Positions 3,001 through 6,000 of a stretch of 64,000 nucleotides of DNA are shown here, piece by piece (within the stretch, counting starts at the first letter, position 1; the number at the start of each line of letters is the position of its first letter). Made by a program: the position numbers. This DNA is from a virus (lineage: Duplodnaviria > Heunggongvirae > Uroviricota > Caudoviricetes): IMG/VR virus record IMGVR_UViG_2880366365_000011; one strand, given 5' to 3'.

Positions 3001-6000
3001 CCTGCCATGTGCTGACGTAAGTAAAATCAGCCACCCACAGCTGGTCAGGTCGTTCTGCCACGAACTGACGGTTTACGCGGTCGCCTGCGGCAACGGCTTT
3101 CCGGCTGATGGTCGTACGGACCTTTTTACCCCGGAGAACACCGGCAAGTCCCATAACCGCCATGAGACGTGCCACTGTACATCTGGCCACCCTGATTCCT
3201 TCCCGTAACAACTGACGCCAGACTTTACGCACACCGTACACCTGATGATTTTCATCGTATACGCGCTGTATCTCTCTCTTCAGCCAGTCGTCGTGCTGCG
3301 CACGGGCACTGCGTTTATCCGGATGATGTCGCTGTTGCTGACAATGGTAATACGTTGACGGGGCAATATGCAGTTCGCTGCATACCGGTCCGACCCCGTA
3401 CTGCTCACGCAGCTTATCCAGCAGTGGCATCATTTTTTCCAGAGGCGGTCGAACTCCGCCTTCGCAAAATAAGCGGAAGCCTGGCGAAGGATATCGTTAC
3501 TGCGGCGCAGTTCACGATTTTCACGTTCCAGCTCTTTCAGACGCTGACGTTCAGCGCTGGTGAGCCCACCATCACCGCCCCCGGTATCCCGCTCATGCTG
3601 GCGAACCCAGACACGCAGAGTCTCCGGCGTACAGCCAATCTTTGGGGCAATGGAACAAATTGCCGCCCACTGTGAGTCATATTCATCCTGACTTTCCAGA
3701 ACCATACGAATCGCCCGCTGACGGACTTCGGGGGAAAAACGAGTATTTTTAGTCATCCTGTTTACCTCTTTCTCAGGGAGTTTAGTCTCCAGGATTTCCG
3801 GGGCGGTTCAGTTTCTGGTACTGGCGACGAGAGAGTATCAGTTGCGCTCTGATTTGTTCCTTCATCTTCAAACACGCCCTTTGTAGTCAGGTATTCAGTA
3901 ATGTATTTGTTCAGTGCCACAGGGTCTTTGTGAATGTCGATCGGACGTTCACGGACAAGGCCAAAAATAGTCTGGCGGTCGTAGCGAAGGGCATCAGGCT
4001 GTTTGCGCATTGATGCCGAGATACGCTTCCAGTCTTCGCGGCCGTTGTCGATAACTTCATTTTTTGCCCAGCGATGGATGCTGCCGTCAATGTTTCCGGC
4101 ATCCACATCACCAGGCCAGAGAGCGTAGGCCAGTTCGTCATCCAGTGTTTTCCATGTCTGCTTGTATTCGCGATGAATGGCAGCAATGACCGGGTTGATT
4201 TTTCCTGTTGAATTTTCAGTGTGCTGTTGATTGGCTCTGGCGCGGGCGAGATCAACAACAGACGTGTATTTTCCGGCTTCCTTGCGTTCACCTTCGCGAC
4301 GTTTTTTCCAGATGCGCATCTCTGCCTGAATTTCGGGCCATTTGGCACCAGGCTTACATTTATGCTTAACCCACCCGATGGCATGCAGCTTAAGCTCCGG
4401 ATACATGGCGTTAACTTCTGGCATTTTCATCAACGCTTCAACGATATGGCCGTCGAATGTTGCCATGTCTTCCTGCAACAATTCCTGTGCGCTAATCACC
4501 ATATCAACAGTGATGTTTTCACATGTGTCGAACTTAACCATGACAGCGTTCTGTACTTCAGGGGCCAGGTTGTCAAAAGTGACGTTCATCGGATCGGATT
4601 CAGTCTCGACCGGGACAAAGGAAGCAGACGCCTCATCCCAGCGGTTTTCCTGCATATATTCAGCATCCCAGGAATCGAGGGCAGGGCGGGGTATACCGGG
4701 TTTATCCTCGCAAACAAGAAATTTATAAGCGCAGTCCTGAGCAGCCGGATAATGTTCCAGGAATTGCCAGTGAAATTTTGCGCGGGCGCGACGTTCATCA
4801 CCGGCTTCAATGGCAGTGGCTACAGCGACGGCACCTTCTTCCTTTATTGCCTGTTCGTCCGGAATGGCGGCGCAAATAAAGACTTTACTCATTTTGTTTT
4901 ACCTCATTACAGATTTAAGGGTGAACAAATCCCTGCCATTGCTGGCATATAAGAATGAAATCGGATGTTTATTACGGAACTGTTTTAAAGACCTGCCGGG
5001 ATTTCGTTATTATCCTGGTGAATAACTTTATCGACCGGGTAACAGTTACCGGGAATTTTCTGTTCGGTTGCTGCAGTCACACACTCCTGCATTGTCCTGT
5101 GAACACTGACTGCAATATCAACTGGCTCTCCGGAAACAAGAAAAACTGTCAGAACAAGTGCAAATGCTGTATTCATTGCCAGCATCCTTTTTGTATCGGA
5201 CGTAAACGGGCCAGCATTGAAAGAATGCATATTTTATTTAATAGCTCCCGTTCGTGTTTTCTCTTGTTAATGGCATCTTCAGTAAATACAGGGTTACTGA
5301 TAGTGACACCAATTTCAAAACAACCTTCAGACGTATTAACGTTTGGTAATAACGTTTCCATTATCGCGTCCTCAACAATGAATTTTGTGATGCGGTGCCT
5401 GGTGCCTCCAGGTGACGTTAACCAGTTAACAATTAACGCCGGATACAGAGAATCCCCCCATAACACTGTTTTTGGTTTTAACTGTTCCGCGTGCGCTCAG
5501 CCGCATTCACCGCATCACAAAATTCACTTTAAAAAGGGCGGCAGAGCAGTCACGGAGTAAAACTGATACCGCCAAACGTCACCAGAAAATTGATAACAGA
5601 GGGCGTTGCAGCGGGGTTGTCACTTAAGCGTATGGTCAACCTGACAACCCGGTGTCCTCAACGGGGGAAGGAATAACCCCTCCATACTTACCGCCGCGCC
5701 ATTTCGCGGATTGCCACAACCGGAAGCGCACGGTCGACGAAAATTTAACGACAGGCTATCTATGAACCAGCTACCTCGCCGTGCGCTTTCGCGTTATGGT
5801 CTGACTTTTCAGGGAAATATCCTTTCAGTAAACTGTCAGTGCCGTATGCTCACCCGTGTCCGGCGCACGCACTCCACCTCACCCGTGGAGAACTCCTTAA
5901 TTACCAACCTTAGCTTCGTTGGTTAGCTATTAACGCGGGTATGTAATCATTCTGGCAATGCTTAATGCCGCTGCTTTTTCCAGATTGGTGATATCCTGCT

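Follow-up and report, generated by a model that had tools for sequence, protein, structure and literature searches.

What a prophage transcribes ahead of a toxic small RNA may determine when that RNA is released. The small RNA DicF regulates sugar metabolism as well as cell division (ftsZ), and in EHEC it also acts on type III secretion via pchA; several DicF copies are found per O157 strain. We analyzed a stretch of 64,000 nt (the window; IMG/VR record IMGVR_UViG_2880366365_000011) that contains two O157:H7 prophages, here P1 and P2, each with a DicF copy. A reading made from the sequence alone had pointed to two regions conserved between them, about 300 bp next to DicF (block 1; 5589-5930 and 51762-52060) and about 165 bp farther upstream (block 2; 6591-6756 and 53121-53280), and had proposed that both are structured RNA, either processing sites that release DicF or an antitermination leader. 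We asked whether these regions are RNA elements, and what they might contribute to an operon that has no N gene.

Two conserved regions of an N-less early-left operon

Each block is located on the minus strand, within the PL-type (dicBp) operon of each prophage, in which the repressor comes first and is followed by the promoter, the leader, small genes, DicF, dicB, ydfD and recE'. As judged from the gene content of the lambdoid prophages in the window, an N-like gene is absent from both early-left operons. Candidate promoters were placed after the repressor/RelBE genes and ahead of the conserved leader in P1, and downstream of a LexA-family repressor gene in P2 (Table 1). Since Rfam places DicF on the minus strand, upstream means higher coordinates, and the orientation adopted in the sequence-only reading was right.

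Table 1. Positions in the window of the features discussed in the text
Feature	Prophage	Position	Strand	Basis
PL-type (dicBp-like) promoter candidate, TTGACT-16-TAAACT	P1	6760..6787	-	consensus match only
PL-type promoter candidate, TTGACC-17-TAAACT	P2	53290..53318	-	consensus match only
Block 2 leader, C-rich at its 5' end (~6746-6715), with an invariant UAAGUAGCCAGCCYGAGGC core and a terminal hairpin	P1	6591..6746	-	
Block 2 leader, then ydfA (DUF1391)	P2	53121..53276	-	
Leader terminal hairpin, CCCC-GGCGUUAA-GGGG	P1	6594..6609	-	
Distal, least conserved module of block 1, with small hairpins	P1	5799..5869	-	
Distal part of block 1	P2	51968..52038	-	alignment to P1
Stem S, long imperfect duplex, CAUAACGCGAAAGCGCACGG / CCGUGCGCUUCCGGUUGUGG, 85 nt; predicted RNase III substrate	P1	5714..5798	-	fold and covariation
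Stem S, GCGUACGG.../...ACGUGCGC, -30.0 kcal/mol	P2	51885..51967	-	fold
Domain M (core 5610-5700), predicted three-way junction P1/H1/H2 and pseudoknot	P1	5594..5721	-	covariance model, 156.5 bits
Domain M	P2	51766..51892	-	covariance model, 155.1 bits
DicF sRNA, 53 nt	P1	5536..5588 (Rfam match to 5587)	-	Rfam RF00039, 76.7 bits
DicF	P2	51708..51760 (Rfam match to 51759)	-	Rfam RF00039, 75 bits
STnc100-like spacer between DicF and dicB, with a long inverted repeat (arms 5510-5533 and 5372-5394)	P1	5372..5533	-	repeat arms

When the two prophages were aligned, block 1 was found to be shared over 5589-5869 (P1) and 51761-52038 (P2), with 256 of 276 positions identical (92.8%), but the last ~60 nt of the region first proposed, 5870-5930, are not shared. 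Its conservation is patchy, as had been claimed, falling from 100% identity beside DicF to 83% at 5757-5806. Block 1 is conserved but not isolated, forming the upstream end of a single unbroken 607-nt homology (5257-5869) that includes DicF and dicB. Block 2 aligned without gaps over 156 nt (6591-6746 and 53121-53276) with 151 identities (96.8%) and with sharp edges on both sides, in agreement with its proposed conservation. Among 5426 complete E. coli genomes, block 1 was detected in 4321 and block 2 in 3707, in each case with E-values down to 1e-116 or lower, and by these sequence comparisons the conservation of both is far above the level expected by chance. Block 1 is also 96.8-100% identical to the ydfC-dicF spacer of the K-12 Qin prophage (96.8% over 348 nt), and because the two regions are homologous, the RNA should be processed alike.

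We consider it likely that both blocks are untranslated early-left operon RNA of N-less lambdoid prophages, block 2 representing the start of the transcript and block 1 the DicF precursor, and the evidence for each part is given below in the order of transcription.

The probable 5' leader of the early-left transcript

Block 2 corresponds to the first ~155 nt of the transcript, beginning at about +7 relative to the predicted start site. The same leader sequence is found downstream of more than 10 unrelated promoter/operator sequences, representing many immunity types, and in Rac it is located between racR and ydaG. About two thirds of the complete E. coli genomes contain N-less lambdoid prophages that have this one 5' leader in common. 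Both O157:H7 copies have the full leader, whereas K-12 Qin retains only its last ~30 nt, and most of block 2 is thus dispensable there. The terminal hairpin, the sole part of block 2 kept in Qin, is also present in E. albertii and at other loci, and in relatives it directly precedes the ribosome binding site of the first gene (ydfA/ydaG). In the reading that we favor, block 2, which is C-rich and little structured, would be a regulatory leader common to N-less operons, and would probably act on transcript elongation/termination or on transcript stability.

The proposal that block 2 is a structured RNA found no support. Single-sequence folds were no better than those of shuffled sequences (z = +1.6 and +0.9), the RNAalifold signal was weak, and in an all-pairs covariation screen the double changes were all confined to a single divergent lineage, represented by six sequences. 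With no structure signal, the conservation of block 2 could reflect recent module exchange, and we weighed the possibility that it is only a by-product of prophage recombination, a mosaic joint or linker with no function as RNA. The edges of block 2 do coincide with module boundaries, and mosaicism is evident from the comparison of phage pPE4 with Rac, in which kil is 98% identical and the leader only 75-88%. However, more than 10 unrelated promoters are followed by the leader with its 5' edge equally sharp and at the transcript start, the core remains 75% identical in a divergent lineage, and an invariant 22-nt core is preserved, leaving this explanation doubtful. A comparison of divergence between the leader and its neighboring genes was uninformative because of the mosaicism.

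In lambda, the PL leader RNA (nutL/N-leader) is processed by RNase III and governs early-left expression, and the operons studied here resemble it in having a PL leader RNA and predicted RNase III processing, but differ in having no boxA, no boxB hairpin, and no adjacent N gene. Another counterpart is the putL/putR RNA of HK022 (PMC9378689), a cis-acting RNA in the PL operon of an N-less lambdoid phage; block 2 occupies the putL position, beginning at the transcript start, and domain M (see below), too, lies upstream of a terminator. This raised the possibility that block 2 is a processive antitermination or anti-Rho leader, analogous to putL, that allows N-free read-through of the DicF terminator. 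K-12 Rac carries the leader, and silencing of racR derepresses the genes from ydaG through kilR and recET to intR, past a DicF-like terminator. The antitermination leader suggested by the sequence-only reading thus fits by position, but not by its motifs, since no nut, boxA, boxB or ops motif was found (boxA at 1 or 3 mismatches), and the conserved parts contain no hairpin with a 5-bp stem and 5-nt loop. The put RNA is ~70 nt long with two stem-loops, whereas block 2 lacks a stable fold, and the only likeness to put in sequence or structure is the 9-mer GCGCGGCGG, which is shared with M. A search of the window with nhmmer returned the two PL leader copies and no related copy downstream of PR. 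Taking into account also the short remnant in Qin, we regard a putL-like activity as unlikely.

A rut-type role appears similarly improbable. In such a model, block 2 would load Rho and act as an attenuator, keeping the toxic dicB/kil genes of lysogens silent against leaky transcription from PL. Over its first 30 nt, C outnumbers G by 14 to 2, and the region is predicted to be unstructured and is untranslated. However, C and G reach parity by ~45 nt, the C-rich stretch measures only ~40 nt where a rut leader would be expected to have roughly 70-80 nt, the remainder is G-rich, and the known Rho-dependent terminator of Rac (trac) maps upstream, within racR.

Stem S, domain M and the release of DicF

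In K-12, DicF is derived from the polycistronic dicBp RNA, from which a 190-nt form is produced by RNase III and the 53-nt form by RNase E (PMC10448788; PMC5069750; PMC9438474), and the region upstream of DicF has been called the long untranslated region or the ydfC 3' UTR in reviews (PMC10448788; PMC5069750; PMC9438474). The Qin dicBF operon, with its untranslated region between ydfC and dicF and its 190-nt pre-DicF (Faubladier 1990; Ragunathan et al. 2023, PMC10448788), has the same order of elements as the operons examined here (stem S, M, RNase E site, DicF, terminator, long stem, dicB). The O157:H7 operons differ in being present in two copies, in prophages with other immunity regions, and in that P2 is without ydfB and ydfC. 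By extension of the K-12 findings, a repressor-controlled promoter would give rise to a polycistronic transcript running through the small genes, RNase III would cut the 3' arm of stem S, and the resulting 190-nt intermediate would begin with the 3' base of S and continue through domain M into DicF. RNase E, acting at the AU-rich site at the 5' end of DicF (5589/5588; ..GUUAUCAA|UUUUCUGG, or ..AA|UUUU), would then free the 53-nt DicF, whose 3' end would be formed by its own intrinsic terminator. Active DicF output depends on this precursor.

The cleavage by RNase III has been shown in K-12, and its position here is a calculation from the published K-12 fragment lengths (PMC10448788), which puts the 5' end of the 190-nt pre-DicF at 5588+137, or ~5725, within the 3' arm of stem S. 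The stem is more stable than expected from its composition (MFE z = -3.44; 0 of 200 shuffles as good), and in relatives 96.5% of its positions remain paired, both partners having been substituted in 6 of the pairs, as compared to 27-45% paired in slid controls. Compensated versions were found in Rac, Serratia, Trabulsiella, Erwinia and Izhakiella. The proposal that block 1 is a structured RNA with processing sites that release DicF found support, in that stem S covaries at the calculated RNase III cut and M covaries as well. The processing role of the stem was already known, and what is added here is its conservation by covariation across genera. The distal module of block 1 (5799-5869), common to P2 and E. 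albertii, is much less constrained, with 59% of its sites variable and a fold z of -0.5.

On the other side of DicF, an alternative 3' end made by RNase III gives a 72-nt DicF (PMC5069750), and we place this cut, presumably, in the inverted repeat of the DicF-dicB spacer, which overlaps a partial match to STnc100 (RF02076) at 5400-5534. The Rfam models for DicF and STnc100 describe flanking elements only, and neither covers S, M or the leader.

Between stem S and the RNase E site, RNAalifold predicted a three-way junction, domain M, roughly 95-125 nt in length, and GUAUGG (5682-5687) would form a pseudoknot with the H2 loop CCAUAC (5630-5635). Over its 28 pairs, 98.2% of positions were paired, and 9 pairs were compensated, as compared to 1.7 in shuffles (0 of 500 as good); across analyses, 97-98% of cells were paired with 7-9 compensated pairs, while shuffles gave 1.4-1.7 and slid controls 0-3. 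Two independent compensatory changes were found in the pseudoknot (G-C to A-U in locus L262 and U-A to C-G in locus L255), and covariation in M is strong, pseudoknot included. Copies were present in six genera (Escherichia, Citrobacter, Serratia, Erwinia, Izhakiella and Trabulsiella). The search pattern by which these cross-genus copies were retrieved kept AAGTATGG and GGTTGNCCATACGC constant, so the invariance of those bases is no evidence of constraint, and the pseudoknot covariation was drawn from a later scan that left both free. A closing helix around M (GUUGUGG/CCACAAC) and an additional 5' hairpin were dropped, since informative variation gave them no support. Within the window, the covariance model for M found only the two copies listed in Table 1.

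We searched for M among known RNAs. In Rfam 15, only DicF and STnc100 were matched by the whole window at the gathering threshold and by 5400-7000 at E<=10, and the same two were matched by Rac and pPE4 at E<=1; five divergent loci at E<=1 gave weak sub-threshold matches to STnc130, tRNA/tmRNA-like and SorX models, all outside M. No Rfam 15 family, riboswitches and ribozymes included, matched S, M or the leader. A full-text literature search for the motif sequences returned no paper, no description of M or its covariation was found in the literature that maps the DicF cuts (PMC10448788; PMC5069750; PMC9438474), and the EHEC Hfq-CRAC paper reports nothing at the position of M and the DicF precursor. 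On comparative sequence evidence, M is a covariation-supported pseudoknotted RNA domain that we have not found described before.

M accompanies DicF-slot sRNAs with at least six different seeds, and is common to a family of prophage sRNAs whose seeds are exchangeable. Its occurrence is uneven. Of 80 KilR-type loci, nearly all have stem S and an sRNA slot and 1 has M, indicating that M is not required for sRNA release in general; retrieval based on KilR gave solely near-identical Rac-type loci, which are informative just on the rarity of M there. A scaffold role fits poorly with these loci, in which the sRNA slot is kept and M is nearly absent. The loops and junctions of M appear more constrained than a spacer would need, part of this being forced by the search patterns.

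In the predicted structure, M would be a compact pseudoknotted three-way junction that is retained in the 190-nt intermediate, and the predicted RNase E site falls in a predicted hairpin loop immediately 3' of it. We suggest that M most likely serves as a folding, stability and processing scaffold, which would keep the RNase E site in the adjacent loop and so pace the release of active DicF from its inactive precursor. Stem-loops are known to guide the RNase E maturation of the 3' UTR-derived sRNAs MicL, CpxQ and SroC (PMC9438474), which resemble DicF in being freed by RNase E from a longer mRNA with structured elements flanking the cleavage site. M differs from those elements in being conserved, pseudoknotted, mobile, and common to sRNAs of different seeds; the DicF precursor also has a prior RNase III step, and M is dispensable in Rac-type loci.

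Alternatively, DicF might be a mere neighbor, and M an autonomous RNA moron, freed through RNase III and RNase E cleavage as a stable RNA of ~137 nt with a trans function of its own, for instance as decoy or sponge for some factor of the host or phage. Two nucleases do cut the flanks of M (PMC10448788), and M is modular and mobile, being linked with at least six sRNA seeds, immediately following the leader in pPE4, and placed behind a methyltransferase gene, in its 3' UTR, at locus L134, while Rac-type loci without M still carry S and the sRNA. On the other hand, M is always 5' of an sRNA and terminator and never alone, and no ~137-nt species has been reported, the published probes having been aimed at DicF. 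We regard such an independent role as rather unlikely.

A cis-acting switch, riboswitch-like or protein-binding, that decides whether transcription ends at the DicF terminator or continues into dicB/kil and the recombination genes seems decidedly unlikely, but some of its features merit description. M has stems that covary and, between them, junctions, loops and a pseudoknot that are constrained, a pattern typical of aptamers, and M is always 20-60 nt upstream of an intrinsic terminator. The 5' strand of its P1 helix (GGCGG) is identical to the 5' arm of the terminator, and the 3' strand of that helix to the 3' arm. Two near-isoenergetic folds are predicted: a local junction with terminator (-60.1 kcal/mol in prophage P1 and -54.7 in P2) and a strand-swapped fold (-65.8 and -64.6 kcal/mol, respectively), the energies leaving out the pseudoknot. 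A switch might also account for the unexplained accumulation of DicF in stationary phase (PMC10448788). However, the GGCGG identity is perhaps just inherited, the terminator of L134 differs and the complementary flank would leave its stem intact, no Rfam riboswitch class matches M, no ligand or protein suggests itself as a candidate, and K-12 transcripts mostly end at the DicF terminator despite the presence of M (PMC10448788). A broader conjecture, which we put forward as a long shot, combines these ideas: M could represent a new class of structured regulatory RNA of enterobacterial prophages, an aptamer-like module built as a pseudoknotted three-way junction, with a metabolite of the host or a protein of host or phage as its ligand, and whose predicted strand swap with the DicF-slot terminator would gate production of the toxic sRNA against read-through into dicB/kil, recombination and excision genes, to which the leader might add N-independent antitermination or anti-Rho activity. 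Stem S, M, its pseudoknot and the leader offer concrete handles for testing how the timing of toxic-regulator release is set by prophages, and S, M and the leader also bear on how early-left operons without an N gene pass terminators.

Coding potential of the two blocks

The sequence-only reading had held that neither block contains an ORF above 50 codons on the operon strand. This was correct for block 1, where the longest is 31 aa (36 aa in P2), but block 2 is overlapped by a 54-aa ORF at 6503-6667 in P1 and, in P2, by a 77-aa ORF composed of ydfA and an upstream in-frame extension, neither of which is conserved. The non-coding reading itself withstood the codon-periodicity check on the alignments, since variable sites were distributed among the three phases without periodicity in block 1 (163/184/166, p=0.47) and block 2 (39/48/56, p=0.22), and the ORFs of both blocks are frameshifted among P1, P2, Rac and other relatives. 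Small proteins encoded in the blocks, on whichever strand, are extremely improbable: operon-strand ORFs of 31-54 aa exist, PGAP annotates a 54-aa antisense ORF inside block 1, and a long ORF traverses M in pPE4, but periodicity tests gave p = 0.47, 0.22 and 0.62, coding tests were negative for both strands with the antisense ORF and the ORF through M included, the start of the antisense ORF is missing in 16 of 44 relatives and the ORF is truncated in others, most gap lengths are not divisible by 3, and the frames of P1 and P2 are shifted against each other. Within M, a 1-nt indel in H1 between P2 and P1 shifts the frame of the sole ORF that crosses it. As judged from these alignments, neither block codes for protein, and both are untranslated parts of the early-left transcript.

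Conservation and setting of the two blocks

The window corresponds, in reverse complement, to ~2.10-2.16 Mb of an E. coli O157:H7 chromosome, is identical to strain TR01, and holds two lambdoid prophages, P1 and P2, each with a DicF copy. In both, the minus strand carries a repressor gene, a sigma-70-like promoter, a conserved leader, variable small genes, DicF, dicB, ydfD (DUF1482) and a truncated recE, which is the PL-type 'dicBF' operon arrangement of Qin and Rac (PMC10448788). The variable genes are ydfC and one for an antisense zinc-binding protein in P1, and ydfA/DUF1391, a 212-aa protein gene and an antisense ORF in P2, whose repressor is a LexA-family protein. 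In P1, a RelB/RelE-ParE-type toxin-antitoxin pair follows the repressor gene, ahead of the PL-type promoter, and appears to have been inserted into the immunity region. The window also contains two hok/sok-type type I toxin-antitoxin loci with full-length sok antitoxin RNA matches, and two IS3-family insertion sequences in opposite orientations, recognized by identical ALIL frameshift-pseudoknot matches, each near a DicF locus; an IS1203-type transposase is annotated nearby. A full-length STnc100 match lies ~800 nt beyond a three-tRNA gene cluster, in a context unrelated to DicF/dicB.

The sequence-only reading held that two blocks flanking DicF are conserved between the prophages. Both are shared (92.8% identity across 276 aligned nt for block 1, beside DicF; 96.8% across 156 nt without gaps for block 2), except that 5870-5930, originally counted in block 1, is not, and block 1 forms the upstream end of an unbroken stretch of homology, 607 nt long, that takes in DicF and dicB. 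Conservation of block 1 is patchy, as proposed, falling from 100% identity beside DicF to 83% around 5757-5806. Of 5426 complete E. coli genomes, 4321 contain block 1 and 3707 contain block 2. The claim that the operon strand lacks ORFs above 50 codons fails for block 2, which is overlapped by a 54-aa ORF in P1 and a 77-aa ORF in P2. Codon-periodic conservation, as expected of small proteins, was found in neither block (variable sites 163/184/166, p=0.47, in block 1; 39/48/56, p=0.22, in block 2), so the non-coding reading stands. Gap lengths are mostly no multiples of three, a 1-nt indel puts the ORF across domain M of block 1 out of frame between P1 and P2, and block 2 ORFs are broken by indels in Rac and phage pPE4. 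On the strand opposite block 1, PGAP/RefSeq annotates WP_001331716.1, a 'hypothetical protein' of 54 aa that is probably a spurious gene call; its ORF shows no codon-position bias (40/49/43, p=0.62), and among 44 relatives it is without its start in 16 and cut short in others.

Features of the dicBF regions and their surroundings (window positions)
Feature	Position	Strand	Remarks
Block 1, P1; P2	5589-5869; 51761-52038		
Block 2, P1; P2	6591-6746; 53121-53276		
DicF, P1	5536-5587	-	Rfam match
DicF, P2	51708-51759	-	Rfam match
DicF-dicB spacer inverted repeat	5372-5533; 51544-51705	-	~20 bp, perfect, GUGAAUUUUGUGAUGCGGUG / CACCGCAUCACAAAAUUCAU; partial Rfam STnc100 match
Domain M	5594-5721; core 5610-5700		covariance-model match
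Stem S	5714-5798		long imperfect duplex; MFE z = -3.44
Block 1 distal part	5799-5869		small hairpins; most variable module, 59% variable sites
WP_001331716.1	5765-5929	+	54 aa
Hairpin motif CCACCUCGCCUGACGUGGUUAAAAGCAGGCA	6171-6201	-	P1, upstream of ydfC
RelB/RelE-ParE-type pair	6872-7397	-	P1
ALIL	3359-3475	-	121.5 bits
ALIL	55654-55770	+	121.5 bits
sok	12433-12607	+	116.9 bits
sok	60282-60456	+	113.5 bits
Three-tRNA cluster	15523-15769	+	
STnc100	16548-16720	+	101.8 bits

Structure and processing of block 1

Comparison of related loci, taken from IMG/VR, GTDB genomes and metagenomes, made the modular build of block 1 evident. The distal part gave no fold signal. The arms of stem S differ in sequence in Rac, Serratia, Trabulsiella, Erwinia and Izhakiella, with pairing kept; in an alignment of the arms only (33 variants, apical parts taken out by hand), 96.5% of cells were paired and 6 pairs had changed on both sides, compared with 27-45% paired in slid-partner controls. 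In Erwinia tracheiphila and Izhakiella (L140 ~4440-4480, L141 ~2280-2320), the apical part of S contains tRNA T-arm/acceptor-like sequence, GGGUUCAAUUCCUGCCACCGC, possibly an attachment-site remnant. The hairpin motif found upstream of ydfC in P1 directly adjoins S or M in Serratia, Trabulsiella, Izhakiella, E. ruysiae and Shigella loci, which suggests that ydfC and distal block 1 were inserted into an older non-coding leader.

For M, which has no Rfam match, RNAalifold predicts a three-way junction of helix P1 (GGCGG/CCGCY) and hairpins H1 and H2. In alignments fitted to the covariance model, and hence biased towards the structure, 97-98% of cells were paired, and two such alignments gave 7 and then 9 compensatory pairs; shuffles gave 1.4-1.7 (0/500) and slid controls 0-3. 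GUAUGG, in the junction, and CCAUAC, in the H2 loop, are complementary. A metagenome scan leaving these bases free recovered two variants compensated independently of each other (GCAUGG with CCAUGC in L255; A-U for G-C in L262), which support a pseudoknot. The proposal of structured RNA is thus supported for block 1, where S and M pair with compensatory changes.

In K-12, where transcription starts at a repressor-controlled promoter, RNase III yields a 190-nt pre-DicF and RNase E frees the 53-nt DicF (PMC10448788). Since the DicF 5' end (5588) plus 137 nt falls at about 5725, RNase III would cut there, within the 3' arm of S between GCGCU and UCCGG; numbering in K-12 (813/814, counted from dicBp) leads to the corresponding position. 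A hairpin predicted to form with the DicF 5' region has the RNase E-type site, between ..GUUAUCAA and UUUUCUGG, in its loop; DicF, its terminator and the spacer inverted repeat follow. The latter would be the RNase III site for the 72-nt DicF, whose alternative 3' end is reported to be made by that enzyme (PMC5069750).

M probably serves as a folded scaffold of the intermediate that would determine how fast and in what geometry RNase E cuts and would stabilize an inactive precursor, in the way that stem-loops guide the maturation of other 3'-UTR sRNAs (studies cited in PMC9438474). This role is weakened because M is rare in Rac-type loci and its loops appear constrained, which argue for a more specific function, although the apparent constraint is limited by the retrieval of cross-genus copies with a pattern fixing part of the loop and junction. 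That M is instead an autonomous released RNA seems rather improbable. A terminator/read-through switch seems similarly improbable, even though two near-isoenergetic folds are predicted (-60.1 and -65.8 kcal/mol in prophage P1, pseudoknot unscored) that exchange the strands of helix P1 with the terminator arms.

The leader of block 2

Conservation begins ~7 nt past the expected transcript start, downstream of promoter-like sites whose ends lie at 6760 in P1 and 53290 in P2. The same leader (..AUACCAACCCACCCCGCCCCACAG..) follows more than 10 unrelated promoter/operator sequences (83 distinct versions). It lies between racR and ydaG in K-12 Rac, while K-12 Qin has only its last ~30 nt, with the hairpin CCCC-GGCGUUAA-GGGG ahead of the ydfA RBS. 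The structured-RNA claim is not supported for block 2: shuffled sequences fold at least as well (z = +1.6 and +0.9), and its RNAalifold signal was weak, with apparent covariation limited to one divergent lineage. Besides the P1 and P2 copies, no further one occurs in the 64-kb window. Block 2 is thus a conserved non-coding 5' leader.

The leader probably modulates how the early-left RNA, which is long and largely untranslated, is elongated or terminated, or how stable it is. That it is a mere mosaic joint is unlikely. A put-like antiterminator, suggested by expression of the whole Rac operon past the DicF-like terminator on racR silencing, is hardly probable; we found no nut, boxA, boxB or ops motifs in the leader and no resemblance to HK022 putL or putR. 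The first 30 nt contain 14 C and 2 G. A rut attenuator is similarly improbable.

That the region is long and untranslated, and that RNase III and RNase E process it, was already known (PMC10448788, PMC5069750, PMC9438474). In the literature searched, in Rfam and by sequence-string search, we found no description of the cross-genus, covariation-backed S architecture, the pseudoknotted M and its modular spread, or the common 5' leader of these N-less operons.

Spread of the modules and DicF-slot sRNAs

The position of DicF, the 'DicF slot', is occupied by sRNAs with several unrelated seeds, all with GGCGG..CCGCC terminators and the conserved tail CCCUUUUUAAAGUGAAUUUUGUGAU; swapped-seed examples lie at L003 3296-3470 and L001 4155-4210, and in L118, L064 and L262. 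Many of these seeds are linked to M, which was found in Escherichia, Shigella, Citrobacter, Trabulsiella, Serratia symbiotica, Erwinia tracheiphila and Izhakiella. Among Rac/KilR-type loci, where S directly adjoins the sRNA, 1 of 80 contained M. In pPE4, M comes within ~50 nt downstream of the leader and is succeeded by two tandem sRNAs and kil, and no genes intervene. Outside any PL operon context, L134 (1127-4592) has an M copy, together with a terminator of its own, in the 3' UTR of the gene for a double DNA methyltransferase of 1095 aa that contains an intein.

One seed type, CCACAACAACCCAUGUUG, carried as a tandem duplicate in pPE4, includes CACAACA, the consensus of GcvB targets that has been reported for AgvB, an anti-sRNA of prophages; such sRNAs may be another GcvB sponge.
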